Source: an uncultured Spirochaetota bacterium
Lineage (GTDB): Bacteria > Spirochaetota > Spirochaetia > SZUA-6 > Fen-1364
Reading direction: 5' to 3'
DNA length: 64,000 bases
Assembly: GCA_963820525.1 (NCBI GenBank)
Contig: CAWGAA010000001.1
Span: 2,784,001-2,848,000, forward strand
The notes beneath the pieces were generated by a model, which saw only the letters and a list, made by a program, of their open reading frames with translations, was not told where the DNA came from and did no database searches. The position numbers and the translations under genes are program-made. Positions 12,407 to 31,054 of the stretch are shown in pieces. Position 1 is the first letter of the stretch; each line of letters starts with the position of its first letter.

Positions 12407-12611
12407 ATTTTACCAGATGCCGAAAGCACCCTCAATCGAGCGGGGGCTTGCTTGTTAAACGATTACAGCCTATTCCTTAATAAGAAAACTCGTAATTAAA
12501 GTTTGCTTATAGAAGTCGCGGCCGATCCTGATTACTATTTTTCCCGATCAATCGAGTTCACCATGAATATCCTTCTTGCAATGGATGATTTTCATGGTGT
12601 ATCATAGGGCC

Positions 12612-13772
12612 ATGGTAGAGCGCGCTTTTATACTCGATAAATTGAAGGTGGCCCTGTCGCGCAGTCGCGTCGTCGTACTGGCCGGGCCGCGCCAGTGCGG
12701 CAAGACGACGCTGGCACGGCAACTTCTCAGCGAGGATTCGGTCAACTACTTCGACCTGGAGGATCCTACCGGCCTTGCTCGACTGGATGAGCCAATGACC
12801 GCGCTCGGACATTTGCAGGGCCTGGTAGTGATCGACGAGGTGCAGCGGCGGCAGGATCTTTTCCCCGTTTTGCGGGTTCTGGCAGATCGTCGGGACAACC
12901 CCGCCCGTTTTCTGATTCTGGGCAGCGCTTCGGGCGACCTTCTGCGTCAGACTTCGGAGAGCCTGGCGGGGAGAATGGAGCGCGTGACAATCAGCGGCTT
13001 TTCGCTGCGGGAGTTGGGCGCAGAAGCGGAACAAACCTTATGGCTGCGCGGCGGTTTCCCGCTCTCCTACCTGGCAGGCAGCGAAGCCGATAGCGCGGAA
13101 TGGCGGAAGAGCTTTATCCAAACCCTGCTTGAACGTGATTTCCCGCAATGGGGCGTCCGCGTGCCTGCCGTGGCCTTGCAGCGCTTCTGGACAATGCTCG
13201 CGCACTATCATGGACAGACCTGGAACGCGGCCGAACCAGCCCGGGCGCTGGGTGTGAGCGAATCCACCGCCCGCCGCTATCTCGATCTGCTGACGGACGC
13301 CTTCCTTATCCGGCAGTTGCATCCCTATTATGCCAACATCAGCAAACGGCAGGTCAAGGCCCCAAAGGTCTCCGTGCGCGACAGCGGGCTTTTGCACCAG
13401 CTTCTCGGCATCAACACGCTGAAGGAACTGCTGAGCCATCCCAAAGTCGGCGCCTCATGGGAAGGGTTTGTTATCGAGCAGGTATTGATGACGGAGCCGC
13501 ATGACGAAGCCCTCTTCTGGGCCACGCATCAGGGAGCGGAGATCGACCTGATCCTGAGGCGTGGCAGCGAGCTTTTGGGCGTAGAGTGCAAGCGGACCGA
13601 CACTCCACGCATGACCCCGTCCATCCGCATCGCCCTTGAAAATCTTGGGCTTGCGCGGGTGGCCGTGCTCTACCCCGGGACGAAGCGTTTTCCAATTACG
13701 GAACGGGTGGAAGCCGTGCCTCTTCAGACGATGGTCAAAGGTATTTCGCTTTTCGAGGGGGGCGAGTCATGA
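12612..13772 (+). CDS. AAA+ ATPase with C-terminal DUF4143-type domain
   Basis: GPRQCGKT, IDEVQ, ILGSAS, ESLAGR, GGFP, EIDL..VECK motifs. Confidence 0.9.
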   Translation: MVERAFILDKLKVALSRSRVVVLAGPRQCGKTTLARQLLSEDSVNYFDLEDPTGLARLDEPMTALGHLQGLVVIDEVQRRQDLFPVLRVLADRRDNPARFLILGSASGDLLRQTSESLAGRMERVTISGFSLRELGAEAEQTLWLRGGFPLSYLAGSEADSAEWRKSFIQTLLERDFPQWGVRVPAVALQRFWTMLAHYHGQTWNAAEPARALGVSESTARRYLDLLTDAFLIRQLHPYYANISKRQVKAPKVSVRDSGLLHQLLGINTLKELLSHPKVGASWEGFVIEQVLMTEPHDEALFWATHQGAEIDLILRRGSELLGVECKRTDTPRMTPSIRIALENLGLARVAVLYPGTKRFPITERVEAVPLQTMVKGISLFEGGES

Positions 13773-15845: not shown

Positions 15846-17822
15846 ATGGAGATGATGAGCGCAACCAAGAAAGCTACAACCTCAAAGTCGTCAAAGATTG
15901 CCTCGGGCTCATCTACAAAAGCTCGTAAGATCACTTTGAGGCCTTTGTCATCACCCCTAAAGGTCAAATCAACTTCCGTATCTGACTCCCATAGGTCCAT
16001 CATGGTGATTTCCGAGAACGGCAAGGAAGTCCGGCTACTTCTACACCGTTTTGCACTCGTCGGGCCCAGCGACAAGATCTTGTTGGACTCGGCACAAGCC
16101 TCCCGAATTTTTGTTGAGTCTGCGGATCCATCTAGAAAGGCCATACCCGTTTCGCCGCACTTTGAGAAAAGGTCAACTTTACGCTTGGGAGCAAGAGACT
16201 ATTCGATTCTCGTGAAGGAAATAACCACTCCAAGCGACCTCAAGGAATACGAGTATCTAGAGGGCTTTCACTATAAGACTTCCTCTGCCATCGTTACTGA
16301 CGAAGATGAGCCGAGCAAAAGCGGCCTCAATGTTGGTGGAAGAAAAGCCATACTTATCGCCTACATCCAAGTTGGCAAGCGCATGATACCTGCCGGGTAC
16401 ATAGATCTCCAAATGCCTTTGCTAATGGTAAAGCCAAGACACGAGCTCTTTAACAACGGCTTTTTCCACCCTGATCGCGATATCTCTTGGGATACATGGG
16501 ATATCAAGAGCATGAGGAAATACGTAAATCTGATTGTTAGGATTGCAAGAATAGTGACAAGCCCCGATCTTAGGGGCTTAGGTCTTGCACGCATAATAAT
16601 CGATGCTGCTAAAGACTATGCCAGAGAACGGTGGCATGTCTATGGCAAGTCTCCACTCTTCATGGAAATCTCAGCTGAAATGCTCAAGTACATGGACTTC
16701 GTGACATCTGCTGGAATGCATTTTGTCGGTAACACCGAAGGAAATCTTTCGAGAGTTCACAAAGATCTACTTCAAATGCAGAGAGGCCAGAAACTCACTT
16801 TTGGGATTATGACACTTCAGAAAAAGTATCTCACGAACTTAAGGCATCTATCGGAAAGTCTACACATCTCTTTTCCAGAGGTGCTCGATAGACTGAAGGC
16901 ACTTACTAAAAACTCTAGCGAAAAAGAGCTTCGATCAAAACTGAATAAATTGAGTGGTCAAGAATGGTTCCTATTCAAAAGAGTGCTCAGATTCCCTATT
17001 CCATATTTTATATGTGGCCTAGATGATGCGTCCGAATCATTTGTACAAAAACACTCACTAACCCCTCCAAGCAAGACTACCCAAAACAAGACATTTCAAT
17101 CTGCAAGGATTGGACTTAAGGATATTAGAGCTACCTCGACATACGAGATCCCAGACAGTGAGCAAGCTCGCGCGATACGTGACTGTTTTGGACTTGATGG
17201 GAATACTTTGAAGGTATCTCTCGTCGGACCTGTCACAATAGAGGCCTCGGGGGGAAACATCATTCTGATTACGGGTCCAAGCGGAAGCGGAAAAAGTGTA
17301 CTTTTGCGAGCAATCGCAGATGACAGTGAGACGAAACTAATTCATACCACATATATAAAAACCGTTGACAAACCATTCGTAGTTGGTTGGCTGACCGAAA
17401 TTAATAGTGATAAACCCATTATTGAATACTTCAGTGGTATTTGGGGAATGGAATCCTCTATTTCTGCATTAAATCAAGCAGGATTGTCCGAAGCATTTGT
17501 ATATCTGAGGCCATATAAACTCTTAAGTAGAGGACAACAATATCGTGCGCGTCTAGCTGCGCTTAGCCTTGGCTCGGCTAACGTTTGGCTTATGGATGAG
17601 TTCTGCGCAGACCTTGATCCCTTCACTGCCCGAATTGTATCAAATAATTTGCGGAAGCACGTTGTGAGAACTGGAAGGATCGCGATAGTTGCCGCAGCAA
17701 ACAACGCTCACTACATAGACGCGTTGATGCCCAACAGGATCATCTACCTTAGGCACAACGGCCGTTGCGAGGTATTTAAATATAAGGAATACATAGATGA
17801 GTTTCGTATCAACGCAAGCTGA
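15846..17822 (+). CDS. GNAT acetyltransferase fused to ABC-type ATPase (COG2401-like)
   Basis: RIARIVTSPDLRGLGLA (GNAT motif A); GPSGSGKS Walker A, LSRGQQYR signature, WLMDEF Walker B; no TM segments. Confidence 0.8.
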   Translation: MEMMSATKKATTSKSSKIASGSSTKARKITLRPLSSPLKVKSTSVSDSHRSIMVISENGKEVRLLLHRFALVGPSDKILLDSAQASRIFVESADPSRKAIPVSPHFEKRSTLRLGARDYSILVKEITTPSDLKEYEYLEGFHYKTSSAIVTDEDEPSKSGLNVGGRKAILIAYIQVGKRMIPAGYIDLQMPLLMVKPRHELFNNGFFHPDRDISWDTWDIKSMRKYVNLIVRIARIVTSPDLRGLGLARIIIDAAKDYARERWHVYGKSPLFMEISAEMLKYMDFVTSAGMHFVGNTEGNLSRVHKDLLQMQRGQKLTFGIMTLQKKYLTNLRHLSESLHISFPEVLDRLKALTKNSSEKELRSKLNKLSGQEWFLFKRVLRFPIPYFICGLDDASESFVQKHSLTPPSKTTQNKTFQSARIGLKDIRATSTYEIPDSEQARAIRDCFGLDGNTLKVSLVGPVTIEASGGNIILITGPSGSGKSVLLRAIADDSETKLIHTTYIKTVDKPFVVGWLTEINSDKPIIEYFSGIWGMESSISALNQAGLSEAFVYLRPYKLLSRGQQYRARLAALSLGSANVWLMDEFCADLDPFTARIVSNNLRKHVVRTGRIAIVAAANNAHYIDALMPNRIIYLRHNGRCEVFKYKEYIDEFRINAS

Positions 17823-19194
17823 AAAGTTTGCAGCGGTTTTCGATAGATCTCCTTATCAGTCCACTGATCCGATCGTTAAAATTCAGTACGTTCAAAAGGG
17901 CAATAATGTTGTTTTTGGTCGAACTCTATCAGGCGAGAACTATGACAAACTAATCTACCTCGGCAAGGTTTACGAGAATACCGCCGGGAAAAACTACCTT
18001 AGTTCAGACGCTTGGCTGGATGTTGGCTACCCGCACGTAATCTATATTACGGGAACGCGAGGAAGCGGGAAGAGCTTTGACTTAGGCGTCTTGATCGAAG
18101 GCATTTCCGAGCTATCTAATCCATCAACAGCGCAGAACAACGTCCAGCCTATCTGCTCGATAGTAATTGATACGCAGAGCCAATTCTGGACTCTAAACTA
18201 TACGCCAAACCCGGCTGTCAAGGAGAACAAGGAGCAACTAGCCGAACTTAAGAAATGGAATATTAGTCCCAATTCTCTGAAGCATTGCAGGCTTTATATT
18301 CCTCCCTCAACCGAGAGAATAACAAACACTGAAACCATATTCCAGATTCGAACATCCGACGTACGACATGAAGAATGGTGTGCTTTAATCGGTGAGCAAA
18401 TATACAGTCCTCAAGGGCATGTCCTTGGCCAAGCTCTTGAGGATCTTTCTGGAAAGGCCTATTCGCTTGAAGATCTGATCTCGTATGTTGCAAATGGAGA
18501 CAATTGGGATAATGTTCCTGAAGTCTCTCGAAATGCAATCGTCTATAAGCTTGAGGGTTACCGTCGAACAGGGCTTTTCAGTGCAAAAGGAATCGACATT
18601 TGCACGCTACTTTCACCTGGTCAGTGTTCAGTATTTCTTTTGCGGGATCTTAGGAACGAAGACAAAGCCCTAATCACTTCTCTGATAGCACGCCAACTTT
18701 CAAGCATCTTGGGTGCTCACCATAAAAAGCTCAAAGTCAGCAAATTCTTCGAAAGAAAGGAAGAGGACGACGGACTTCCAAATACAGTTTGGATGTTTAT
18801 AGATGAGGCTCATGTGGTTGCTCCAAACGGTTCAGTGTCTCCTGCCACCAATGCTCTTATAGATTATGTAAAGCGTGGTAGAGATGCAGGACTGTCCTTG
18901 GTAATGGCCACGCAACAACCCTCTGCTGTTGATGATAGAATATTGAGCCAAGTCAATATCACATTCTCGCATAGACTTACATTTCAAAATGACATAAGTG
19001 CTGCGATAAACCGAATACCTACTAAGCTTCTAAAGGACTTGAAATATGCAGGAAGAGATATAACAGATTTTGGCGACATGCTTCGGTATCTCGAGGCTGG
19101 TGAATGTTTCTTGGGCGATCACAACACTAGCAGAGCTGTCTTGGTTTCTATTAGGCCAAGGGTGACTCCTCATGGTGGTTATAACCCAAGCTAA
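17797..19194 (+). CDS. HerA/FtsK-family ATPase (DUF87/DUF853-like)
   Basis: GTRGSGKS, IVIDTQ, FIDEAH, KRGRDAGLSLVMATQQPS motifs. Confidence 0.88.
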   Translation: MSFVSTQAEKFAAVFDRSPYQSTDPIVKIQYVQKGNNVVFGRTLSGENYDKLIYLGKVYENTAGKNYLSSDAWLDVGYPHVIYITGTRGSGKSFDLGVLIEGISELSNPSTAQNNVQPICSIVIDTQSQFWTLNYTPNPAVKENKEQLAELKKWNISPNSLKHCRLYIPPSTERITNTETIFQIRTSDVRHEEWCALIGEQIYSPQGHVLGQALEDLSGKAYSLEDLISYVANGDNWDNVPEVSRNAIVYKLEGYRRTGLFSAKGIDICTLLSPGQCSVFLLRDLRNEDKALITSLIARQLSSILGAHHKKLKVSKFFERKEEDDGLPNTVWMFIDEAHVVAPNGSVSPATNALIDYVKRGRDAGLSLVMATQQPSAVDDRILSQVNITFSHRLTFQNDISAAINRIPTKLLKDLKYAGRDITDFGDMLRYLEAGECFLGDHNTSRAVLVSIRPRVTPHGGYNPS

Positions 19195-20374
19195 CCCATA
19201 TCTCACAATTAGTCGTAAAATTGGCTACTCTGTCGGCCTTGAATCACTCAACGAACGTGTCTTTGAGCTTGTAAAGCTCTACGATACTGAAAAAGGGCTT
19301 TCCTTTGCTTCATTTACCAATCTTGTAGAGAAGACATATGCTCGCAAGAATGCTGTGGAACATTTTGCCAATTTTTATGGTACACTTAATCTTGTTAGGC
19401 TTGTCGGAAGAGATATTGAGCCGCTTTTCAGATTAGACACTCTTGCTATTCTACGCAGACTCTTCCTTGATGACGAACCAAAATTCTTACTATGTCAACG
19501 AATCATTCTGACCCTGCTAATCATTGAGGCAGACGGGGATGTATTCCTTAATGGCCTCTTCGCTGATTTCAAGCCAAACGAGATGAAGACAAAGCTCGAA
19601 GCGATGTCCTTCACAAAAATCCAGCGTCTACAGACTGTATTTCCGACGAAAGCCTTGTTAGCGCAAATGGCTAGCATAATAAACATCAAAAACCAAACTC
19701 AGAAGAATGCAATTTCAGATGAAAAGCTTGGTCGCTTCGAAAAACGTAAAATGCCACTTGAGATGGGAAAAAGAACTACAAGCCTAGATACTTCAGTTTA
19801 TTTGACGCAAAACATCTCTGAAGACTACCTTGACAAGACCAGCAAGACAAGAAAGGGATGGGCACAAGACTTATTGCTGTTTAAAGGAGAGAAGCGAACG
19901 GCCATAGGGGACAAACTGTTGAGCTTTCTATTTGAGAATATAGTCTCCACCGACATTGAACGCAGTTGTATACTTTATTGGGGCTATAAATCTGATCTAG
20001 ACCGTATTCGAGTTGACCCCTCAAAAATCAGTGCTATTTCCTTCGAAGAATGGGATCTCATCTCTCAGATTTCAAAGGCCTATAAAGGGGAAACTTCCGT
20101 GGGGACACAGAAACTCTCCGATGATCAATTGTACAAGCTGTTCTTAAAAATGCATCAACTTTATAGAGAAGCGTCCTCTTCACGGGGATCTATTCGAAAC
20201 AGTTTACCCTTGTATATCGCTGAGCCAATTCTCGCTGCGTATTGCGTTGCAAAGAACATTCGGTTGCCCGACATAAACGCCTATCTAAAGAAAGAGTTCA
20301 CTCGACCAGTTCGACGTATCCAAAGAATGATAATCCGTGGTACCCTCGGAGCGCTTTACTTCATGAAGGAATAA
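19172..20374 (+). CDS. Uncharacterised 400-aa protein (possibly winged-helix rich)
   Basis: Long ORF overlapping or abutting both neighbours; no catalytic motif recognised. Confidence 0.75.
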   Translation: MVVITQANPYLTISRKIGYSVGLESLNERVFELVKLYDTEKGLSFASFTNLVEKTYARKNAVEHFANFYGTLNLVRLVGRDIEPLFRLDTLAILRRLFLDDEPKFLLCQRIILTLLIIEADGDVFLNGLFADFKPNEMKTKLEAMSFTKIQRLQTVFPTKALLAQMASIINIKNQTQKNAISDEKLGRFEKRKMPLEMGKRTTSLDTSVYLTQNISEDYLDKTSKTRKGWAQDLLLFKGEKRTAIGDKLLSFLFENIVSTDIERSCILYWGYKSDLDRIRVDPSKISAISFEEWDLISQISKAYKGETSVGTQKLSDDQLYKLFLKMHQLYREASSSRGSIRNSLPLYIAEPILAAYCVAKNIRLPDINAYLKKEFTRPVRRIQRMIIRGTLGALYFMKE

Positions 20375-20375
20375 T

Positions 20376-21260
20376 ATGGCTGTACACATCACCAAAGAGT
20401 TTCTCAACGATCTAAGAGAGGCCGATGATCTAAGGTTTGTCAGACAAGTATTGAATCACACGATAGACCGTGACGGTGATTTTGCAGACGACAAGGATGA
20501 TCATAGATATAAGGACATCGATGATGCTTGGATACGCTGCGTCAGTAAAGGCGCAACTGCTTTCCGGGTAATATTCATAAGAAAAGGTTCAGACATATAT
20601 CTCTATAGAGCTGGACATCATGACATTGAAGATCATTTGGCGCCTGCGCGCTCCTTTTCCTCGTCTATTACACTGGCAGAAGGCCCAATCAAACAGCCTC
20701 AAGAATATAAAGAGCAAGTTCCTCAGCAGATTTTTCTTAAGAACTCTGAACCTGCCTTCATAAACAAGTTCCTGATAAGCATGTATCACTTGAGGCATCA
20801 TGAGATCTACATTGTGTCTCCTTTTCTGGACTTGCCGATTCTATCTAGCAAGCATCACTTTGGTAGATTCCTTGACAAAGCAAAGGAAGAGGGAACCGAT
20901 GTTATTTTGATCACGCTACCTCCAAAAAATGACGATGAGATTACTGTTTTTAGAGACTTGGAGTTACGAGATATTCGAGTATTCTTTCTTCCTAGACTGC
21001 ACACAAAGCTATATATCTTTAATGTGGACCTTGAATCGAGAACTTTCTATCAGCGCGGTGTCTTCGGAACAGCTGTACTCGGATCCTCCAATTTGACATG
21101 CCCGGGTCTTGGTTTCGATGAACTGCAGCCTAATGAAGAGCTTTGTTCCACGTTTCACACCGATAGAATTGACGAATTGAAGGATTATGTTCTAAAGTTG
21201 ATGTTTCGCTCTCAGGACTTTACAGATTTTATGCAAAGAAGAAGGAGACAGCAACGATGA
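20376..21260 (+). CDS. RelE/ParE-like N-terminal domain fused to PLD (HKD) nuclease-like domain
   Basis: N-terminus VHITKEFLNDL...FRVIF...LYRAGHHD; C-terminus IVSPF, LHTKLYI, GSSNLT, NEE. Confidence 0.75.
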   Translation: MAVHITKEFLNDLREADDLRFVRQVLNHTIDRDGDFADDKDDHRYKDIDDAWIRCVSKGATAFRVIFIRKGSDIYLYRAGHHDIEDHLAPARSFSSSITLAEGPIKQPQEYKEQVPQQIFLKNSEPAFINKFLISMYHLRHHEIYIVSPFLDLPILSSKHHFGRFLDKAKEEGTDVILITLPPKNDDEITVFRDLELRDIRVFFLPRLHTKLYIFNVDLESRTFYQRGVFGTAVLGSSNLTCPGLGFDELQPNEELCSTFHTDRIDELKDYVLKLMFRSQDFTDFMQRRRRQQR

Positions 21261-22396
21261 TTGCTCCGGAGACATTTTATAAAGCTGCCAATCTGAGGGA
21301 CAATCCTTTTCGAACAAACCCTGCCGCCGAGGCAGATCCTCGAAGAGGCATCTGGATAGGGTATCTGAATGAAAGAAACACGTTGACGAAGTATCTCCAG
21401 CGTTCTTTGTCTGACAACGTTGGGAATATCAACTTTGTAATGATTTACGGCGAATTGGGTAATGGCAAATCGCACGCTCTGCTTTGGTCTCAGCATTTGG
21501 TGCTTGTTGCAGAAAACGAGAAATACAACAGTGTTGCATATTATATTCAAAGCCTAAAGCGCGACAAAGGCAAAATGTCATTTGTCTCAGCGTTCAATGA
21601 AGACATTGTTGGCAAGTCCAATCTTGCGGGAGATCTCCTAATCTATAAACAGTTTGTCTCTGAATGCATAATCGAGTATAAGCGAGATAACGCGCTCGGA
21701 CCTGATGTAAGCAATGATAAGGTGGCTGAGCGACTCATTCCATCAATGGATATGCGTAATACGCTTACAAAAATTCTGAAATGTGAAACCGAGGACAATA
21801 TAAGAGGCCTCTTAGGCACTGACACAGACTACTCTGCGATGCTGCTCTTCTGCCAAATTGTGAATCTGTTTGTTCACCCTTATGAACTTGCAGCAGGCAA
21901 GAAGAGATACAAGAAATGCGTCTATCTCTTCATTGACGAGATGGACGTTCTAGGTGAAGTCCCTCCCAAAGAAGCCAGAGATGTTAACGCCTTGTTACGA
22001 CATATCTATGACCTTTGCCCAAATTGCTTCTTCCTTGGGCTTGGCTTCACTGCAACTGCCGCTGAGCTTGGGGTTCTTTTCGATGAATTTGTTCTTTCTA
22101 GAGTTTCGAAGCAAATCACTCTGCAGTTCATGCAGCCTGTAGAAGCTCAGGACTTCATTCGCCAAATACTCAATACAGTTCGAATTGATAACAAGAAGCA
22201 CATTGATTATTTCCCATTCACGGAAGACGCGGTTGGGACAATAGTCTCACGAATGGTGTCAATAACTCCACGAAAAATCGTTAATCAAATGCTGCAGATA
22301 CTCGAAGAATGTCGCCTAGCAGATCTTGATCCGTCAAAGGCTCCGATCTCTACAACCCAACTCGATGAAAAGGAGATATGGGAGATGGTGGATTGA
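21257..22396 (+). CDS. P-loop AAA+ ATPase (Orc1/Cdc6- or STAND-like)
   Basis: NPF N-terminus, GELGNGKS, LFIDEMD, FPFTEDA, TPRKI motifs; ATGA overlap with upstream gene. Confidence 0.82.
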   Translation: MIAPETFYKAANLRDNPFRTNPAAEADPRRGIWIGYLNERNTLTKYLQRSLSDNVGNINFVMIYGELGNGKSHALLWSQHLVLVAENEKYNSVAYYIQSLKRDKGKMSFVSAFNEDIVGKSNLAGDLLIYKQFVSECIIEYKRDNALGPDVSNDKVAERLIPSMDMRNTLTKILKCETEDNIRGLLGTDTDYSAMLLFCQIVNLFVHPYELAAGKKRYKKCVYLFIDEMDVLGEVPPKEARDVNALLRHIYDLCPNCFFLGLGFTATAAELGVLFDEFVLSRVSKQITLQFMQPVEAQDFIRQILNTVRIDNKKHIDYFPFTEDAVGTIVSRMVSITPRKIVNQMLQILEECRLADLDPSKAPISTTQLDEKEIWEMVD

Positions 22397-23256
22397 GCAA
22401 GAAAATTGTCGGCGCAAAGACGAAGGCTCAGAAAGTCCTCGATGGCTTTGCGCAGTCAGAATGTCTCCCCATAGTGCAATCCATATCATCCATGCTAATT
22501 CGACTCCAAACAGCGTTTGACCTCCTTGGCAAATCGATTATGCACACTGACCAGAACTCTTCTCCTGTCATAGATCCTTCCACCATCCTTGAAGCAATTG
22601 AAAGCATGAAGCTTTCAGAGTTTTCTCTTGATAAAGATGCTGTAGATAATGCTCGCAAATGGGCAATTTTCCAACTTGCCACGACCTATAGCAACCTTGG
22701 AGAGTTGATTCGACAACACTGTGCCGAGCGAGCGATAAAGATAGACGGCGGCCCACGATCTTTCATTCTTGCTAATTTTCTGCATATTGTAATCGATTTT
22801 GAATCAAATGCCGTGTTTATAGAAGACAAAAAACTCGAGCGACTATCCACTTCCGCTATTCTTAAGTTGATCGATGCGGAAATTTCGAATGAAAACAAAA
22901 GAAGCCCGAGCTCGAGTGAATTCCTACTTGCTTGTTATCGGGCATATAGCTACCTCATAAAGGCTTCTGCTCAAGAGTATGGTACTCCTATGAGAGTTCG
23001 CGATGTTTACAAACAGATTATTATTGCGAGTCAGCCGGAGAAATTTTGGAAGAACCCCAATCGCGCAAACCTATTTGAATATGATGAACATCTCTTCAAG
23101 CGAGATCTTGTACGACTCTTTCTTGAGAACTCTTCGGCCCTTCCAACTGGTGAAAGTATTGAGCTATTGCCTACTGCCTTTCCTAAACAAGGGATTCCAA
23201 TCCCTTTGCCCGAAGGCACAAGATACATCGGTCATATTGCCTTCCGCAGAGCATAA
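22378..23256 (+). CDS. Uncharacterised 292-aa protein
   Basis: Long ORF coupled to both neighbours; helical, with a possible C-terminal wHTH. Confidence 0.75.
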   Translation: MGDGGLSKKIVGAKTKAQKVLDGFAQSECLPIVQSISSMLIRLQTAFDLLGKSIMHTDQNSSPVIDPSTILEAIESMKLSEFSLDKDAVDNARKWAIFQLATTYSNLGELIRQHCAERAIKIDGGPRSFILANFLHIVIDFESNAVFIEDKKLERLSTSAILKLIDAEISNENKRSPSSSEFLLACYRAYSYLIKASAQEYGTPMRVRDVYKQIIIASQPEKFWKNPNRANLFEYDEHLFKRDLVRLFLENSSALPTGESIELLPTAFPKQGIPIPLPEGTRYIGHIAFRRA

Positions 23257-23258
23257 CA

Positions 23259-24566
23259 ATGCTTGAGCTTTCTATTGAGACTGCTAGAAGGATCATAAGC
23301 CATCTAAAATCGGGAACTACTCCTATCGATTGTGTTCAACATCTCAACGTTGGCAACGAGAAGTGGTATTCTGCTGCAGAACGGCAACTTAAGGATATTT
23401 CAGTTGATGGGGATTCTTTGGTTAGATTCATAAACGGCTATTACGGCGACGGTAAGACGCACTTCCTTGGAATGCTAAGGGCGATAGCTTTTTCGAACAG
23501 GTGGGCGGTGTCTTATGTCTCAGCTGAGAACACTCCATTACACAAATTTGATGTCGTTTATTCTGAAATCATTCGGAACCTTAGCATTCCCCGTTCTTTG
23601 ACACTTCCAGAATGGATTGCCAAAGAAGATTGTAGAGGTGCACCAGCAATACTTGGAGCGCTTTTCTTTCGCTTTTACTTTGAGGCATACAGATTATCAG
23701 ACAACGCTGGCTTACGAAAAGAAAGAGTAATCGAAACTATTCGACATAGGGTAGCGACATTTTGTTCCCAACCGGATATCTCGGAGCCTCTCGGAGTCGC
23801 GATTAGGTACTATTTCGAGGCTATAATAAAGGGAGACTCCTCAACCGCTCATTCGCTTTGTGAATGGCTTGAAGGAATGGATGCCCGCGTTGACGGATTG
23901 CCTGTTCTGAAGAGGATCGATAAGCTTCGATCCAGAGACGCAAGTCGGGGACTATCGATAATCACCAAGGCCTCGGGCATCTCTGGAGTTCTTATACTGA
24001 TCGATGAGGCCGAGCGGATCATGGAACAGTCCCGATCTATACGCAACAAGAGCTACGGTGTTCTTAGAGATCTCTTAGATAATGCGGATGACCATGGCGG
24101 AATGACCTCAACCATCTATTATGTTGCTGCTACCCCGGAAATGTTTGAAACTGCAAGCGGTTTTGCTGAATACGACGCACTACGTTCGCGGCTTTCTAAC
24201 ATCGCTATCGCCTATGCCCCCGACTTAATAGATTGGCGCGGTACTCTTGTTAACCTAGTGAAGACCCCAATGAGTCCCGAGAACCTATCTTCTTTAGCGC
24301 GAAAAGTTATCGGAATCCACTCTATTGCCCGTCAATGGAATCCATCTTCTATCCTTTCTGAGGACTTGATCGATAAGATTATTGAAAAGGTAGTTGCTGG
24401 CGTCTTTTCATCTTCCAAGCCTCGTATAGTAACCTCTTTCTTCGCTAATCTGCTTGAGCTTCTGGAACAGAATAGAGAATATCCGCTAAACGATGGTATC
24501 GAAAGCGTATTGTCCTACATAGTGCCAATCCTCAAGACGAAGCCAAAAGCAAAGTCTTGGGAATAG
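23259..24566 (+). CDS. BrxD/DUF2791-like ATPase (copy 1)
   Basis: ARRIISHLKSGTTP...LNVG, GYYGDGKTHFL, LILIDEAE, ATPE, YDALRSRL motifs. Confidence 0.85.
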   Translation: MLELSIETARRIISHLKSGTTPIDCVQHLNVGNEKWYSAAERQLKDISVDGDSLVRFINGYYGDGKTHFLGMLRAIAFSNRWAVSYVSAENTPLHKFDVVYSEIIRNLSIPRSLTLPEWIAKEDCRGAPAILGALFFRFYFEAYRLSDNAGLRKERVIETIRHRVATFCSQPDISEPLGVAIRYYFEAIIKGDSSTAHSLCEWLEGMDARVDGLPVLKRIDKLRSRDASRGLSIITKASGISGVLILIDEAERIMEQSRSIRNKSYGVLRDLLDNADDHGGMTSTIYYVAATPEMFETASGFAEYDALRSRLSNIAIAYAPDLIDWRGTLVNLVKTPMSPENLSSLARKVIGIHSIARQWNPSSILSEDLIDKIIEKVVAGVFSSSKPRIVTSFFANLLELLEQNREYPLNDGIESVLSYIVPILKTKPKAKSWE

Positions 24567-25699
24567 ACCCAATGATTTCAAACCAACTAAAGCTCAGGCG
24601 GAACATTCGCTACCTCAAGAGAGGCGTATTCCCGCCTGAAGACATTGAACAATTTACTTTTGGTCGCGAGCGTGAATTGGCTGTCATTCAGAAAAAGCTA
24701 TCCGAAGTAAAGGATGGTTGCTGTAGATCTCTCTTTATTCAGGGCGTGTACGGACGAGGGAAATCACATTTATTAAAGTCAATTGAGGCCTCAGGTCTAC
24801 AGAGAGGATTTGCTGTGGCTTGGGTTACAATAGACGGATATGCGCATGCCTTCAATCACCCAACTAGGTATCTGCATTCCATTTCGGAAAGCATTCGCTT
24901 TCCATCCAGTCCTTATCGAGGTCTTGCGGCCAACGCTCGTGCTTGGTTATCGGGCGACAAACGTGAGACCCTTCTTTCATATCTCAGAAGCTCTCGCAAT
25001 ACTTGGATGTCTTTTGCACTTCAATCAATTGCAAGAGATCATCCTTCGTTTCTCGAAAACCATTACAACAGCATTATTGAGAGTCGAGACCTCTTGGGCA
25101 AGAACGGTAAACAATGGTTTGAGCTGGTCGTAGAACGGCTAGATGATATTAGCCGTTTATGTAAGCTTGTAGGACACGGCGGAGTCATTTACCTTTTTGA
25201 TGAGATTGAATCAATCGCCACCCAATTGTCCACGATTAGGCAGAGGCTATTGTCCTATGAGTTTTTAAATATGCTTATCGATGAACGTCGACATGCCCAT
25301 AGCTTTCTTGCATTCGCGGCTACCCCAGATTTTGGAAATAAGATATTGGAAGATGTAGCAGCTATTTCAAACTATGAAGCTGATTATGCTGATGCATGCA
25401 GATTCATTAGGAAATGGATTTCTAACAGCGTAGACTGCATAAATATCAACAGGTTATCAAAAGACTGTCTCTTCCTTCTCTGTGAGCATATTCGAACTAT
25501 TCATGAGAAGGCGTATGAATGGAAATCAAACGGGGCAGTATCCTCGGAGAGCATTAGGACGTTGGTTAGCGAGTGTTTCGCAAAAAACCTTGGAACGAGA
25601 GAGATTGTCAGAACAGTCGTTCATCTTCTTGAGGTCCATGAGCAGCTCTCTCATACGCATTCTTCCAGTCATAGCAGACTGAACGACGAAATCAAATGA
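24557..25699 (+). CDS. BrxD/DUF2791-like ATPase (copy 2; start may be ATG 24572)
   Basis: LKRGVFP...FTFGREREL, GVYGRGKSHLL, YLFDEIE, AATP motifs. Confidence 0.82.
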   Translation: MGIDPMISNQLKLRRNIRYLKRGVFPPEDIEQFTFGRERELAVIQKKLSEVKDGCCRSLFIQGVYGRGKSHLLKSIEASGLQRGFAVAWVTIDGYAHAFNHPTRYLHSISESIRFPSSPYRGLAANARAWLSGDKRETLLSYLRSSRNTWMSFALQSIARDHPSFLENHYNSIIESRDLLGKNGKQWFELVVERLDDISRLCKLVGHGGVIYLFDEIESIATQLSTIRQRLLSYEFLNMLIDERRHAHSFLAFAATPDFGNKILEDVAAISNYEADYADACRFIRKWISNSVDCININRLSKDCLFLLCEHIRTIHEKAYEWKSNGAVSSESIRTLVSECFAKNLGTREIVRTVVHLLEVHEQLSHTHSSSHSRLNDEIK

Positions 25700-25741
25700 A
25701 AGTTTGACCATTGTCTCAAGAAGTCTATTAAGATATTTGTG

Positions 25742-25960
25742 TCACTTATTGCTATCCGCATGCTCTTCGCTCAACTCCGCTTCGGCATCAGAAATTGTCA
25801 AGATAGACAAAGCTGCCGCTTTGCTTATGCTTCTGAGACTGACCTATATAAGAACCGTTTGAATCTTGATGGTTTCTCAATCCCGAGGCATCCTCCTGGC
25901 TCCTTTTTCTGCCAGCCATACCTCTCAAACTCGCGCATGAGAGCACTGTAGCTGCATCGG
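25742..25960 (-). pseudogene. Degraded C-terminus of an XRE/ImmA-IrrE-like regulator
   Basis: MREFERYGWQKKEPG...EKPSRFKRFLYRSVSE, then shifted frame ISKAAAL, resembling ImmA/IrrE family tails. Confidence 0.5.
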
Positions 25961-26038
25961 AAAGAAGCGCGTGCGCATATGCCCGAAATGGAATTGCCTG
26001 AATTGAGATGCCGTATTTAGACTCGTTTATATGTCCCC

Positions 26039-27701
26039 TTACCCCTTCACCTCCAGTATCTCCTCAGGTATATGTGTAATAAGCTTCACCAGTTCCTCGA
26101 ATCTAAAGTCAATGTCCATCACGGCATACATCTCCTTCTTGGAGTTGTAGATCGGCATCGCCGCCGTCATGATCAGCTTGTCCGTGTACTTGGAGAAAAA
26201 GAGATCCGAGTAATACGGCTCTCCGGTCTTCAGGACCGCGACAAACCAGTCATGCTTCCTGAAGTCCTTGTTCATGAGGTTTCTGAAAAGACTCTTCTCC
26301 CCGCGCTGGGTGTGCGCCTGGGAGATGCGCAGGCCCTCCAGGTTTGTCACGGCAAGAAGCTGGATGGAGGCCTCCCGCGTCACCACGTCATGGAGGTAGC
26401 TCTCCATGCGCTCTGCATCCAGGGAGCGCACCTCCTCTGAGACGGAGATGTGCTGGGCGATGTGGCGGGCCTTTTCAATCGCGGCCTCTTTAGCTTTCTG
26501 GAAGTCGGAGACGAAAAGCGAGGGCAGGAAATGCTTTGCCTGCGCCACAAGCTCATCAGCGGAAATGCTTGTGGTTCGGCCTTGGGCATACTGCTCAGTG
26601 ACCCAGGCGTTGATGTGCTTGATGCCGGGGTGGCGCTTGACCACCGGCTCCATGGCCCTGCCCGTGAGCTGCGGGATGTTTTTGTTTATCCATTGCGCAA
26701 TTCCCGCCATGCCGGATTTGTCCGTCACCATCACGCGGATGGGCCTGTTCAGAAGAGCCTCAGTATCAAAAATGTTATAGATCTCCGGGTTCTTGAGGAT
26801 GCCGTCCGCGTGGATGCCCGCGCGGGTCACGTTGAACTCGACCCCACAAAGGGATAGTTGGGTGCAACGGGAGCCTGGATCTCCGTCCGGAAATAGTCAG
26901 CAATCTCCGTGATGACACGGGTGTTCATGCCATCCGGCGTTCCCTTAAGCCCTATGTACTCCACCACCGCGGCTTCAAGCGGCGGGTTTCCCGTGCGCTC
27001 GCCAAAGCCCAGCACCGTGGCGTTTAGCGCGGAACATCCGTACAGCCAGGCGGATGTGGCGTTCACGTGCACCTTGTGAAAATCGTTGTGGCCGTGCCAC
27101 TCCAGAAGCAGAAGCCGTAGATGTCCGCGCGCGTAATATCTTCAAAGTGACAGCGCGGCCGTATGCCCTCCTCAAGCGCTGATTTCACAATGGCAAGGTA
27201 GTCTTCCATGACCTTGGCGCGGTTTGACTTGAACTTGAGAAACACGTGGTAGTCTGAGACAGAGGTGAGGATGCCCGTCTCCTTGAGGCCTAACCCCTTT
27301 ACTATAGACAGATCCTTTGCGTCAGCGCAAATCCATCCCGTCACCTCGGGGAACGGGTGTCCCAGGGCAAGGCAGGCCTCTACCGCCTGCGCGTCCCGCT
27401 TGGAGTACAGGAAGAACTCGCTTTATCTGATCACGCCCTTGGGGCCGCCCAGCTTGTGGAGAAGCCCAAAGATGAGGGCAATCTGCTCCGGGGCATACGG
27501 CGGCCGGGCCTGCTGGCCGTACCGGAAAGTGGTGTCCGTTATCCAGATGTCCTTGGGAGGGTTCAAAGGCACTTCCAGGCCGTCAAAGAGGATGCGCGGG
27601 ATATCGGAATAGGGGAATTGCTCCCGGTAGAGGTTGGGTTCCGCGGGAGATTCAAGGGGGAACGTGCGCCTGACAGGCAAAGGAGAGAAGGTGCTTTGCA
27701 T
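26039..27701 (-). pseudogene. HMGL-like (Re-citrate synthase / isopropylmalate synthase-type) enzyme with C-terminal Cache-like domain, disrupted
   Basis: DTTFR.GQQ, EWHGHNDF, GFGERTGN, TRAGIHADG spread over four frames; TAA at 27423-27425, internal deletion near 27108, frameshift near 26843. Confidence 0.8.
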
Positions 27702-27846: not shown

Positions 27847-28278
27847 TCATGCTAGACCGCAAAAGCCTATCACTTTTTCAGCCAGCTCGCCCAAATCCTT
27901 CCGCGCCTCAGAAAGCGCATAGTCAAGGAACTCTGCCAGCGGATCTGTATCCCTCTCCCAGTATGGCTCAACAAAAGAGATGCCATATTTCTTTACCAAT
28001 CGGTCGAGAGCAACGGCGCAGACGAATACATCATCAATGTATCCCGCTGGGCCGTAGATCTTTTCCGGAAGCAGGTCGTTCGGTACAATCAAATAGCCCA
28101 GGACGCAGAGAATAGTCATTCTGTCTTCCGCTTGTAATTCCGGCCGGTCAAGGACGCCGGACAAAGCCTTGAAGATCGCGGGGAGGTAATAAATGTATTC
28201 CTTGATAGAACCGTGATAGGCGTTGATCTCCGTTTCCAGAAAATCGTGATAATCCTCAGGCATTTGTGCTTTTGCCAT
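27847..28278 (-). CDS. YkvA/DUF1232 family protein
   Basis: LGYLIVPNDLLPE..YGPAGYIDD motif; overlaps the helicase stop. Confidence 0.85.
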   Translation of the reverse strand: MAKAQMPEDYHDFLETEINAYHGSIKEYIYYLPAIFKALSGVLDRPELQAEDRMTILCVLGYLIVPNDLLPEKIYGPAGYIDDVFVCAVALDRLVKKYGISFVEPYWERDTDPLAEFLDYALSEARKDLGELAEKVIGFCGLA

Positions 28279-31054
28279 CGCCAAGCTCCTTGCAGATGAA
28301 TTGATAATGGCATGCAGGACAGCGGGAGGGGTCTTTATTCAGTGGAAAAGATTTGGCTTTAAGACCATCAGAGACTGAAGAGAGAAGACTTTTTGCTGTT
28401 CCATCATCATAATCGAAATCAATGCATTGACTGTCAAAAAAGGTGTATGTGGCCATTCGTTGGATGGCGGTATCCACAAGACAGTGGCGGTAAATGCCAA
28501 GCTGGTCTTTGACGCCCGTTTCCTCAATGCCTTCACGTGTACGTGCCTTGAAATCAACCAGCGTGTTTTTGCCGGTATTATCCCGAGCCACCAGATCAAC
28601 CTTCCCTCGGACAATCGTGGTGCCGTCGATGTGTACAAACGGCTTTTCGAAAGAGTGAATCTCGCGGAACTCTTTTACTGCAAAGGCAAGGTATTTAAGG
28701 GTGAGGCCAAGGTAGCTCTTCTTGAGCTTTTCATCAGATTCTTCGTCATAGATGGGGATCCATGATCCGTTTATGAATCCCTGGATATCGCCCTTGGTCA
28801 CTTTTTTACCATTTTTCAAGGCCCAGTTCACTTTCTGCAGAACATTGTGAATGATAACTCCTTGTCGCTGCATCGGTTCCGCAGAGGAAGCGAATCCATA
28901 GAAGTAATTGATCTTGTAGCGGAACGGGCAATCCCGGTAGGTATGGACGGCGCTGTAGCTCAGGGATGTCACGGAAAGCGGAGAAATGTAGGAGTTGTCC
29001 ATCCGTATATCAGTGTCGATTTCCTCCGTGACATATCCCTTGATCATTTCGATAAAACGGGAGGGCCGCGCTTTTCTGACATTAATTTTCTCAGGAACTG
29101 TGATCATTAGGAGATCCTGGGCTCGAGTGATTGCCACATACAACAGCCTGAGTTCCTCCTCGAAATGCCTTTTCTCATCAGCCGTTTTTATCTTCATGAG
29201 ATTATCTGGGATCGGGATGCCGCAGACTGGTTCTTTTTCCCGATAGCGGAGAGGAAAATCTCCCTCGATCAACGAGCAGACGACCACGGCTGGGAACTCC
29301 AGGCCCTTTGCCTTGTGCACCGTCATGCATTTGGCCGCTTCCGTGCTTTCAACAAAGACCTGGTCCATTCCCTTGTCCATTGTCTTGTTGTAGAGCAGCC
29401 ATAAAAGGTCTTTCGCGGACGGCCGTGAGAAACGCCGTTGGTAACCGTCAACAATCCTGGTAAGCTGGGCCAGGTTTAAAAGCTTCTCCTCATTTTCTGG
29501 GCAGGGATGATCGAAGAGCAGCGACAGATATCCGGAGAGCTTGAAGATTTCATACAGAGCGTCGAGCAAGCCGATCTCATTTTCTTCTATTCTTTTCTTG
29601 GCTAGATTCAGCTCTACCAGGACTCGGCTATCCTTGCGATTTCTGATGCCGAGCGCTGAAGCCTTTTTGTCTGAATTGATTGCGTTGAGGCTGGAGTTTC
29701 GCGGAAGGTTGCGGAGCACGTCCAGGGTCGTGCGCGAGAAAGAAATCACCTCATTGTCAAAAAGATCGGGCCGCCACCAATCGCTCCAATCCTTGAATCG
29801 TGTTTCAGCTATCAAGCTTTGATGCAGATAGCTGAAGATGTTGATAACGTCCCGGATCTCCTTCCGCTCCAGAAAGCGGCCGTCGCTATCCGTGGCGAAT
29901 GCCAGACCGTGTTCCTGCAAAGCCGCGGTAACATCGGTTGCCAGGCTTCTTTTTCGATAGAGAAAGGCGCAGTCGCCTATGGAAAGCTTTCCCTGTGCAA
30001 TCTTTTTTTTCAAAAACAGAACAGCATTTTGAGCCACGGCTCTCCTGTTTTCCCCGTTGATGAGGATAATCTCATTTCCCTTGGAGCGATGGGCCTCAAG
30101 TTTTTCCTTGATTTTAGCTTCCAAGAGCTTGTTGGCAGTGTCAACGATGTTTTTTGTAGAACGAAAATTGGTGTTCAAAGTAAAAGACTTTGTCTCTGGA
30201 TACCGGCAGGAGAATTGCGTGAAGCTTTCCCGCACTGCTCCCCGAAAACCGTAGATGCTCTGGTTTTCATCCCCAACGACAAAGATGTTTTTATGGTCCG
30301 AAACGATATGCCTGATGATTTCATTCTGTATGGGGTTGGTGTCCTGATATTCGTCCACGAGCACAAAGCGGAACCGCTCCTGGACAGGCGTGCGGACGGC
30401 CCGAATATCTGAAAGCATTTTCAATGCGATGCTTTCAAGATGTGCAAAATCAACGAGTTTTTCCGCGCGTAATAATGCCACATACCTCTTATAGCTTTCG
30501 ATAAGTGCCCTGCCATCCTCGGTTTCCACGCCCATCTTTTCTATCACAGCGGCTAATGCCTTTGGTTTAATGTCGTTTTCTGTGATGGTGTTATAGAGAA
30601 GGCATACCTGATCTTCTGGATTGCCTGCGAATCCTGCCGCTTTGCTGATGAGATTACGCCAGCCGTGTGGACCATTGAGACCCAGCCGGTATCTGTTTGC
30701 GATGATAAAAAGCTTCTGGTTCTCACTGTCAAGAATGTTGAAGGAGGCGCCAAAATCTTGAAAGACGAAATGGTCTTCCATGATCGTCTTGCAGAGAGAG
30801 TGGATGGTTGAAACGTGAACTGCCTTCGCGTTTTCTCCTATTGAGAGAAAAAGGCGAGTGCTCATCTCCTCCGCGGCCTTTTCCGTAAAGGTCACAGCCA
30901 GGATACTATTCGGTTGGGTTTTTTTCTCTTCTATGAGAAACTTTATCCGCTCAATCAGGACCCGGGTCTTGCCGGAACCCGGTCCGGCAATGACTATTGC
31001 GGGTCCCAAATAGTGGTGCGCTGCATCTCTTTGGCGGTCGGTGAGCTGGACCAT
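28256..31054 (-). CDS. UvrD/PcrA-like SF1 helicase fused to PD-(D/E)XK nuclease with 4-Cys cluster
   Basis: AGPGSGKT, DEYQD, VGDENQSIYGFRGA, TVHKAKGLEF, YVAITRA; C-terminal CPFRY, GKVDL, VDFK, CPAC...C. Confidence 0.9.
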   Translation of the reverse strand: MVQLTDRQRDAAHHYLGPAIVIAGPGSGKTRVLIERIKFLIEEKKTQPNSILAVTFTEKAAEEMSTRLFLSIGENAKAVHVSTIHSLCKTIMEDHFVFQDFGASFNILDSENQKLFIIANRYRLGLNGPHGWRNLISKAAGFAGNPEDQVCLLYNTITENDIKPKALAAVIEKMGVETEDGRALIESYKRYVALLRAEKLVDFAHLESIALKMLSDIRAVRTPVQERFRFVLVDEYQDTNPIQNEIIRHIVSDHKNIFVVGDENQSIYGFRGAVRESFTQFSCRYPETKSFTLNTNFRSTKNIVDTANKLLEAKIKEKLEAHRSKGNEIILINGENRRAVAQNAVLFLKKKIAQGKLSIGDCAFLYRKRSLATDVTAALQEHGLAFATDSDGRFLERKEIRDVINIFSYLHQSLIAETRFKDWSDWWRPDLFDNEVISFSRTTLDVLRNLPRNSSLNAINSDKKASALGIRNRKDSRVLVELNLAKKRIEENEIGLLDALYEIFKLSGYLSLLFDHPCPENEEKLLNLAQLTRIVDGYQRRFSRPSAKDLLWLLYNKTMDKGMDQVFVESTEAAKCMTVHKAKGLEFPAVVVCSLIEGDFPLRYREKEPVCGIPIPDNLMKIKTADEKRHFEEELRLLYVAITRAQDLLMITVPEKINVRKARPSRFIEMIKGYVTEEIDTDIRMDNSYISPLSVTSLSYSAVHTYRDCPFRYKINYFYGFASSAEPMQRQGVIIHNVLQKVNWALKNGKKVTKGDIQGFINGSWIPIYDEESDEKLKKSYLGLTLKYLAFAVKEFREIHSFEKPFVHIDGTTIVRGKVDLVARDNTGKNTLVDFKARTREGIEETGVKDQLGIYRHCLVDTAIQRMATYTFFDSQCIDFDYDDGTAKSLLSSVSDGLKAKSFPLNKDPSRCPACHYQFICKELGDGKSTNA

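Follow-up and report, generated by a model that had tools for sequence, protein, structure and literature searches.

A mobile HerA-type gene cassette with a five-gene core and an optional BrxD-like module: a candidate defence system in an uncultured Spirochaetota bacterium

Eight co-oriented genes, g1 to g8, lie in a block of low guanine-plus-cytosine (GC) content in the genome of an uncultured Spirochaetota bacterium (assembly GCA_963820525.1, contig CAWGAA010000001.1, positions 2,784,001 to 2,848,000 of the forward strand); this whole stretch of 64,000 nucleotides is the window referred to below. Our analysis shows that the genes consist of a conserved five-gene core, g1-g5, that forms a mobile cassette in distantly related bacteria, and of a clade-specific add-on, g6-g8 (Table 1). 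A defence function of the cassette is likely, judging from its gene content and context. As stated in the original prediction, the list of open reading frames (ORFs) holds exactly eight genes here, and neighbours either overlap by 4-26 nt or sit 1-2 nt apart (overlaps of 26, 23, 4, 19 and 10 nt and gaps of 1 and 2 nt along g1-g8). The AT-richness noted there was equally borne out, with a GC fraction of 0.439 in the cassette against 0.590 in the remainder of the window; each 1-kb interval from 16001 to 26000 has a GC fraction of 0.417-0.460, and those outside mostly 0.50-0.65. All eight genes have homologues and their order is repeated in other genomes, so they are genuine genes and not chance ORFs. 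No tRNA gene was found within the window, a search for flanking repeats at the island borders returned none that was convincing, and promoter-like and terminator-like sites occurred at chance level in simple scans.

Table 1. Genes of the cassette, neighbouring features in the window and related loci (aa, amino acids).
Feature	Position	Strand	Length	Description
Cassette g1-g8	15846-25699	+		eight co-oriented ORFs
g1	15846-17822	+	658 aa	GNAT fused to transporter-type ABC ATPase
g1, aa 1-125	15846-16220	+		N-terminal domain
g2	17797-19194	+	465 aa	HerA/FtsK-type P-loop translocase
g3	19172-20374	+	400 aa	multi-winged-helix protein
g4	20376-21260	+	294 aa	RelE/ParE-like N-domain (lead only) and HKD/PLD nuclease-type domain
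g5	21257-22396	+	379 aa	AAA+ P-loop ATPase, last core gene
g6	22378-23256	+	292 aa	opens the add-on; C-terminal winged helix
g7	23259-24566	+	435 aa	BrxD/DUF2791-family AAA+ ATPase
g8	24557-25699	+	380 aa	second, more divergent BrxD/DUF2791-like AAA+ ATPase; TTG start
Upstream ATPase	12576-13772	+		AAA_14 and DUF4143; PADLOC PDC-S01
Gene fragments	26039-27344	-		short ORFs
UvrD-nuclease	28256-31054	-	932 aa	UvrD-type helicase fused to PD-(D/E)XK nuclease
Fic protein	38417-39571	+		Fic_N and Fic; SoFic-like
L001	6610-16603			cassette in a betaproteobacterial metagenome-assembled genome
L014	11193-12086			decayed cassette
L028	107074-124451			BRC-like locus, Haloplanus sp. HW8-1 plasmid NZ_CP098519.1
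L035	334-4857			HerA operon in genome G413, from the family of the host

The original prediction treated the eight genes as one indivisible system, and this claim did not hold. We scanned one genome per species and found 19 loci, spanning Alpha-, Beta- and Gammaproteobacteria, Acidithiobacillia, Planctomycetota and Binatia. The order and strand of g1-g4 are those of the window in all 19, and g5 comes next in 18 of them; g6-g8 were present in a single one (L001). The conserved unit therefore has five genes and not eight, and the anticipated co-occurrence of the gene set in distant taxa is real for g1-g5, which are found across several phyla, but not for g1-g8, which are confined to one clade. 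Median identities between the loci and the window are 59.8% for g2, the most conserved gene of the cassette, 44.0% for g5, 42.7% for g1, 35.2% for g4 and 27.2% for g3, the fastest-evolving gene of the core. Relatives of g3 are rare, 61 among 5.8 billion clusters and none above 49% identity. At least 332 relatives of the N-terminal region of g1 were found at E <= 1e-10, so that the g3 count probably understates how common the cassette is.

The cassette is mobile and was horizontally acquired. Its GC content is lower than that of the flanks in all 19 loci with flanks, the g1 and g2 trees have their main clades in common, and near-identical copies occur across classes and phyla: a single clade holds nine very similar cassettes from Acidithiobacillus, Halieaceae, Stappia, Pseudomonas and Binatia. 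The cassette is missing from all 40 relatives of the host genome that were examined; one of them has a HerA protein, 31% identical, in a different operon. Of 179 candidate ORFs in the flanks 148 were scanned and the 31 farthest dropped; among those scanned, at least 9 of the 19 loci have integrase, conjugation, transposase or toxin-antitoxin genes no more than about 6 kb away. L009 and L010 have Trb/VirB genes beside the cassette, and L019 has Tn7-like TniQ genes there. Known defence genes are found nearby as well. Avs3a (7e-191, PADLOC) adjoins the cassette in L003, and a DISARM-type DrmD helicase (1e-164) with a mad2-like methyltransferase lies just upstream in L014. In the window itself the ATPase 2 kb upstream of the cassette corresponds to a PADLOC candidate single-gene system (E 3e-90), the Fic protein aligns with the SoFic defence protein over almost its entire length (E 9e-117), and the GajB-like UvrD-nuclease is a further defence-type neighbour. 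A phage origin was rejected: neither g3 nor g6 has a relative on viral contigs, and g2 has no match in phage records. Plasmid records contained no match to g3 or g6 and no close, cassette-level match; the g2 matches there were archaeal only. The original interpretation is supported to the extent that this is an unnamed, horizontally acquired multi-ATPase set with defence-type content and context. The cassette of L014 is decayed: g5 is lost and the tail of g4 resembles the g5 C-terminus, suggesting a deletion that fused g4 and g5.

The eight proteins were scanned against PADLOC-DB 2.0.0, NCBIfam 20.0 and Pfam-A, and no complete system matching the operon was found in these libraries, in line with the original prediction. 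g3 and g6 had no match at all, and g4 (Pfam PLDc_2) and g5 (PADLOC IetA) had weak matches below the cut-off. The domain labels first given to the proteins stood for the ABC, GNAT, HerA and BrxD-like parts; for the PLD part the motifs are present and the match lies under the cut-off, and the RelE-like label is a lead only. The HerA assignment of g2 is based on DUF87 in Pfam (E 5.5e-7) and on PADLOC, where the mad8 model matches (E 4.1e-19, profile positions 13-308 of 314) along with 11 HerA models. Invariant in 12 sequences are its Walker A residues G86/R88/G91/K92/S93, the Walker B pair D336/E337 and the stretch A371-S376 (ATQQPS). The fold of g3 resembles those of FokI, BpuJI, N.BspD6I, SspB and BrxA; a Foldseek search with g3 and g6 gave no match at E <= 0.001. 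We propose that g3 is a DNA-recognition or specificity subunit. In g5 the Walker A (G65/G68/G70/K71) and Walker B (D227/E228) residues are invariant in 17 sequences and the N-terminus carries a conserved N-L-x-x-N-P-F motif. g5 has no Pfam match; its closest ESM Atlas clusters (0.98) carry PF10923 BrxC_BrxD in 20-74% of their members. We considered g5 as a close paralogue of g7 and rejected this, the hhalign probability being only 13%. No sequence relative of g3, g4 or g5 was found in the PDB.

g4, the effector candidate of the original prediction, has two parts, a RelE/ParE-like one at about residues 1-90 and, after a linker, an HKD/PLD nuclease-type domain at about residues 140-265. The latter matches PLDc_2 in Pfam below the cut-off (E 5.7e-4), many homologues carry PF13091, and both the H-x-K and the GSxN motif are present in the window protein. 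In an alignment of 106 sequences (89 database proteins and 17 rows of our own alignment, not de-duplicated) H209-x-K211 is intact in 99. The N-terminal part is kept more strictly, with D42, H43, R54 and R64 present in 106/106, E85 in 105 and R78 and H82 in 103. Since the HKD histidine is lost in seven members while these residues are invariant or nearly so, the PLD nuclease cannot be the sole essential activity of g4, and a second activity besides DNA cutting is suggested. It is possibly directed at RNA, or the N-domain may have an essential docking role instead. Among named ESM Atlas clusters, RelE/ParE/YafQ come closest to residues 1-95 (0.89-0.90). Pfam has no RelE/ParE family match for g4; hhalign lines up the matching motif with two ParE-family toxins of the same genome at probabilities of 1.8% and 0.3%, and we regard the RelE/ParE likeness as a lead only. 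In the clade L015-L018 the HKD histidine is lost in L015, L017 and L018 (L016 is not in that alignment), and S or A replaces the second glycine of GNAT motif A in g1; the two enzymes may be relaxing together there.

g1 combines an N-terminal domain (residues 1 to about 125), a GNAT domain (about 125-310), a helical linker and an ABC ATPase (about 450-658). The ATPase is recognised as ABC_tran in Pfam (positions 463-586, E 8e-10) and resembles mad3 of PADLOC (E 5.8e-12). Acetyltransf_1 falls below the cut-off (Pfam E 2e-3), and a profile of the g1 family aligns with a bona fide GNAT at an hhalign probability of 92.8% (E 3.8e-7). Among 114 family members R243 and G244 of GNAT motif A are kept in all and G246 in 110, and in the ABC domain Walker A K483, the signature residues S561/G563/Q564, Walker B D584/E585 and the H-loop H622 are each kept in all 114. 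PDB sequence matches cover the ABC domain only and are to the nucleotide-binding domains of transporters and to ABC-F proteins, by which the domain is classed as transporter/ABC-F type and not SMC type. Relatives of g1 bear names such as 'ABC-type ATPase with predicted acetyltransferase domain' in public sources, and no recognised DNA-binding domain was found in g1 with Pfam. The N-terminal domain has invariant residues of its own (H67, R68, F69, A70, G73 and D76) and no library match. The window copy starts with a Ser/Thr/Lys-rich extension of ~35 residues that is absent from most relatives.

The add-on is optional and clade-specific. It is restricted to the window, L001 and the metagenome contig L027, which holds g1-g8 and reaches the contig end, and it is missing from 17 of 20 related loci. 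The three carriers form one clade of the g1 tree with support of 100/100, so that the add-on was probably gained once. In a genome-wide search, four genomes with the five-gene form had no relative of g6, and none was found in 400 other sampled genomes of the phylum of genome G001; a locus search with a g6 profile (five-row alignment) matched L027 only. The g6 family, about 280 aa long and with 105 cluster representatives, is not in Pfam; the predicted model of g6 (pLDDT 92) has a helical N-terminal part, an alpha/beta middle domain and a C-terminal winged helix. Between L027 and the window g6 is 27.5% identical, g7 52% and g8 49%; the low identities of g3 and g6 mark both winged-helix proteins as the fast-evolving parts. 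g7 matches BrxC_BrxD in Pfam over nearly its whole length (E 2e-50, 5-411 of 414) and in PADLOC both BrxD (3.7e-38) and SngB (4.9e-29). For g8 the BrxC_BrxD match comes in two stretches (E 2.9e-28), with AAA_16 at 3.5e-8 and PADLOC matches to SngB (3.5e-16) and BrxD (6.5e-16); its translation shows a Walker A (G-R-G-K-S) and a D-E Walker B. The NCBIfam BREX_BrxD equivalog scores 128 bits with g7 and 61 bits with g8 against a cut-off of 350. In L001 nearly all cassette genes are broken into two or more ORFs, compatible both with assembly frameshifts and with real decay.

Comparison with published systems places the cassette closest to the HerA/FtsK capture systems (PMC10853773) and to BRC (PMC12839542), both taken here from passages of the main texts and neither named in the original prediction. 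In the former a capture logic of localising, pumping and cutting DNA is proposed. The shared features are a HerA/FtsK motor, one or more AAA+ ATPases, an endonuclease, winged helices, mobility and a patchy distribution, as well as a separate fast-evolving multi-winged-helix protein of the FokI/SspB/DndG type, found in a subset there and represented by g3 here. Since the BrxC_BrxD family is classed as Orc/Cdc6 AAA+ (PMC12839542), the cassette joins in one mobile operon a HerA/FtsK motor (g2), Orc/Cdc6-type AAA+ ATPases (g7/g8), a further AAA+ ATPase (g5) and winged helices (g3/g6). The nuclease arrangement appears to differ: the capture systems have an active restriction endonuclease (REase) and an inactive one inserted in the Orc/Cdc6 protein (PMC10853773), and the cassette has an HKD nuclease-type domain fused to a RelE-like one, with no match to a REase family in a Pfam sequence scan of the eight proteins. 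The GNAT-ABC ATPase is universal in the cassette, whereas the main text of PMC10853773, as far as its passages go, mentions GNAT only for DndF and PLD and BrxD nowhere.

With BRC, as described in passages of PMC12839542, the cassette shares the HerA/FtsK translocase, universal in BRC and present here as g2, a GNAT and a BrxC/Orc-Cdc6-type AAA+ ATPase. A fourth part in common may be the tripartite DNA-binding protein (DUF4007 in BRC), for which the BrxA-like g3 is a candidate. The cassette differs in having the GNAT fused to an ABC ATPase and a candidate effector with RelE-like and HKD parts; PglZ is missing genome-wide, and STAND NTPase, TGT and a BrxC of DUF6079 size are missing from the operon (Pfam). 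The closest plasmid relative of g2, at 28% identity, belongs to a Haloplanus locus whose composition is that published as BRC in passages of PMC12839542, and it lies next to a GNAT that aligns with the GNAT of g1. That locus (L028) encodes a QueD-family protein, TGT, a small AAA protein, a 1363-aa BrxC-like protein, a 380-aa protein without assignment, HerA, GNAT and QueF; beyond these come a PD-(D/E)XK nuclease and a DNA helicase. The protein at the position matching g3 there has no sequence similarity to g3. We found no description of the cassette in the literature; the main-text passages of the two papers do not contain it, and their supplementary neighbourhood lists, which were not covered, could. 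Its two fusions are not described in those main-text passages.

Membership in three further known systems was rejected. MADS is described in passages of 10.1101/2023.03.30.534895 as an experimentally validated eight-gene methylation-associated defence operon of Pseudomonas aeruginosa, whose detection model has MAD6, MAD7 and MAD8 as mandatory parts and whose components include an N6-methyltransferase, a specificity subunit and a kinase. The cassette shares with it the nearly end-to-end mad8-like g2 and the accessory mad3-like g1, and mad1, 2, 4, 5, 6 and 7 are unmatched in the operon (PADLOC, E <= 0.01). For BREX types 2 and 6, PglZ (PF08665) is unmatched in the whole genome, which is 96.7% complete, no methyltransferase (PglX/BrxX) was found in the eight operon proteins with Pfam, PADLOC and NCBIfam at E <= 0.01 (the search for PglX was confined to these proteins), and BrxHI was not found in the operon; g7 and g8 match the BrxD profiles of Pfam and PADLOC and fall far below the NCBIfam equivalog cut-off. 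For Shango there is the SngB-like match of g7 but no TerB or helicase in the operon, and the only nearby helicase is the UvrD-nuclease, on the opposite strand and 2.5 kb away. The original prediction was thus right that PglX, PglZ, TerB and a helicase are not recognisable in the operon by Pfam and PADLOC. Its label 'BREX-related' is apt for the two BrxD-like ATPases, the BrxA-like fold of g3 and the BrxC/D-like neighbours of g5, but the BrxD signal that prompted it sits in the clade-specific g6-g8, which, unlike their counterparts in BREX or Shango, supplement a different machine and are optional there. The operon L035 may represent a simpler version of the cassette; in it a g5-like AAA+ ATPase (386 aa), an NgoFVII-type PLD protein (250 aa), an AAA_16 ATPase (381 aa) and a g2-like HerA (477 aa) follow each other. 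The HerA of L035 is 31% identical to g2 and is the sole PADLOC match there; a DNA methylase lies nearby on the opposite strand. The Haloplanus locus, the G413 operon and the MADS profile matches indicate that a HerA motor with an AAA+ ATPase, an HKD nuclease and an optional GNAT recurs in several forms.

The HerA motor, the AAA+ ATPases, the nuclease-type domain and the winged-helix proteins in one mobile operon lead us to assign the cassette to the HerA/FtsK capture kind, and it is best filed there as a five-gene core with an optional BrxD-pair module. On balance, and with moderate confidence, we read it as a mobile anti-plasmid or anti-phage cassette of this kind. By analogy with the capture model in passages of PMC10853773 and PMC12839542, g3 and g5 would recognise the target DNA and load onto it, the g2 motor would pump or hold it, and the HKD domain of g4 would cut what has been captured, with the RelE/ParE-like domain serving as a second, RNA-directed effector or as a docking domain. 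ATP-driven dimerisation of g1 could control acetyl transfer and so either mark self or switch the machine. In the clade of the window g6, as a winged-helix adaptor, and g7/g8 would have been added once and probably provide an extra layer of sensing or loading. Several observations weigh against this scheme. DNA cutting by g4 is not universal given the seven members that have lost the HKD histidine, the RelE-likeness failed the profile test with hhalign, and the BrxC/D likeness of g5 comes from a single language-model search. Many loci have housekeeping neighbours only. The operon also has no methyltransferase or other known self-marking enzyme, which leaves the sparing of self unexplained.

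Among the other readings, one that we consider unlikely is abortive infection, where g2, g3 and g5, with or without g6-g8, would sense the invader and release effectors directed at translation, the g4 RelE-like RNase and/or the g1 GNAT, the latter acting like the GNAT toxins that acetylate charged tRNA. It would account for the N-domain residues of g4 being kept more strictly than the HKD histidine and for RelE/ParE/YafQ toxins being its closest named clusters, and the transporter/ABC-F character predicted for the g1 ATPase would also fit. GNAT and RNases are indeed proposed as back-up suicide effectors in passages of PMC10853773 and PMC12839542. The RelE-likeness, however, has no statistical support from hhalign, the operon contains no antitoxin-like gene, and an HKD motif intact in 93% of members points to DNA as a target.

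A second reading turns on acetylation and takes up the idea of the original prediction that the GNAT enzyme marks self. Here g3 would read sites at which g1 acetylates either the host DNA or a protein bound to it, and DNA without the mark would be seized by HerA and cleaved by the HKD domain, an immunity with the logic of restriction-modification. TmcA and NAT10 provide a precedent as ATP-dependent GNAT enzymes that acetylate cytosine in RNA. The motifs of both g1 domains, invariant in the 114 members, suggest an active, ATP-coupled enzyme, and g3 looks similar to the recognition modules found in FokI, BpuJI and SspB, while its pace of evolution, the highest of the core, is typical of specificity subunits. 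DNA modification is suggested for the GNAT with TGT by the BRC authors in passages of PMC12839542. Against it, our literature search found no DNA acetyltransferase shown in any defence system, g1 lacks a recognised DNA-binding domain, and the seven g4 proteins without the HKD histidine belong to cassettes that keep g1. We regard this reading as quite improbable. The same holds for a wider form of the idea that we put forward as a speculation, that an ATP-gated acetyltransferase, the GNAT-ABC protein, writes the decisive signal of the immunity machine, whether as a mark on host DNA or DNA-bound protein at g3-read sites or as an acetylation by which the RelE-like/HKD effector is triggered or silenced.

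It is also rather doubtful that the window holds two independent neighbours, the HerA cassette of five genes and a BrxD-pair system of three that landed beside it. This would explain the rarity of g6-g8 among the loci and the five-gene genomes with no g6 relative; the g6 family with its 105 representatives may have other contexts, and paired Orc/Cdc6 ATPases make modules of their own according to passages of PMC10853773. But g5 and g6 overlap by 19 nt, the order g5-g6-g7-g8 is kept in all three places at only 27-54% identity, the carriers are one clade, and the two parts are near-equal in GC (0.436 for g1-g5 and 0.444 for g6-g8). No g6 locus outside the cassette was obtained from plasmid records, viral contigs or the 400 genomes of the phylum of G001. 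HerA/FtsK motors also serve conjugation and segregation, and a role unrelated to defence, as the DNA-handling module of a mobile element in partition, transfer or exclusion of rival elements, would suit the Trb/VirB and TniQ neighbours, but it is very improbable in view of relaxase, replication and partition genes that are not consistently linked, flanks that differ at nearly every locus and are plainly chromosomal at several, a nuclease, RelE-like domain and BrxD-like parts typical of conflict systems, and the failure to find the cassette on viral contigs or closely matched in plasmid records.

Under the capture reading that we favour, the cassette would offer a small system in which to test the 'HerA capture' model, so far purely computational. 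It is conserved, strongly selected and crosses phyla by horizontal transfer, yet beyond generic domains it is covered by none of the three libraries. A HerA motor and a FokI/BrxA-like reader are combined in it with two uncommon fusions, that of GNAT to an ABC ATPase and that of the RelE-like domain to HKD. The role of the GNAT domain in BREX-related systems would be illuminated as well, and the optional BrxD pair offers a natural comparison, with and without, for the role of BrxD-type ATPases. Were an acetyl-based signal to be real, it would mean a chemistry for telling self from non-self, or for switching, that no defence system has been shown to use so far, and an acetyl mark at g3-read sites would mean restriction-modification by acetylation instead of methylation.

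Beyond the cassette, the gene fragments on the opposite strand derive from an HMGL-like/homocitrate-synthase-like enzyme and a dCache sensor domain, and they look like broken-gene debris at the downstream edge of the low-GC block. The UvrD-nuclease that follows is GajB-like (PADLOC 3e-75). It sits in DNA of 0.47-0.50 GC, and the foreign island may for this reason reach to about 31 kb.

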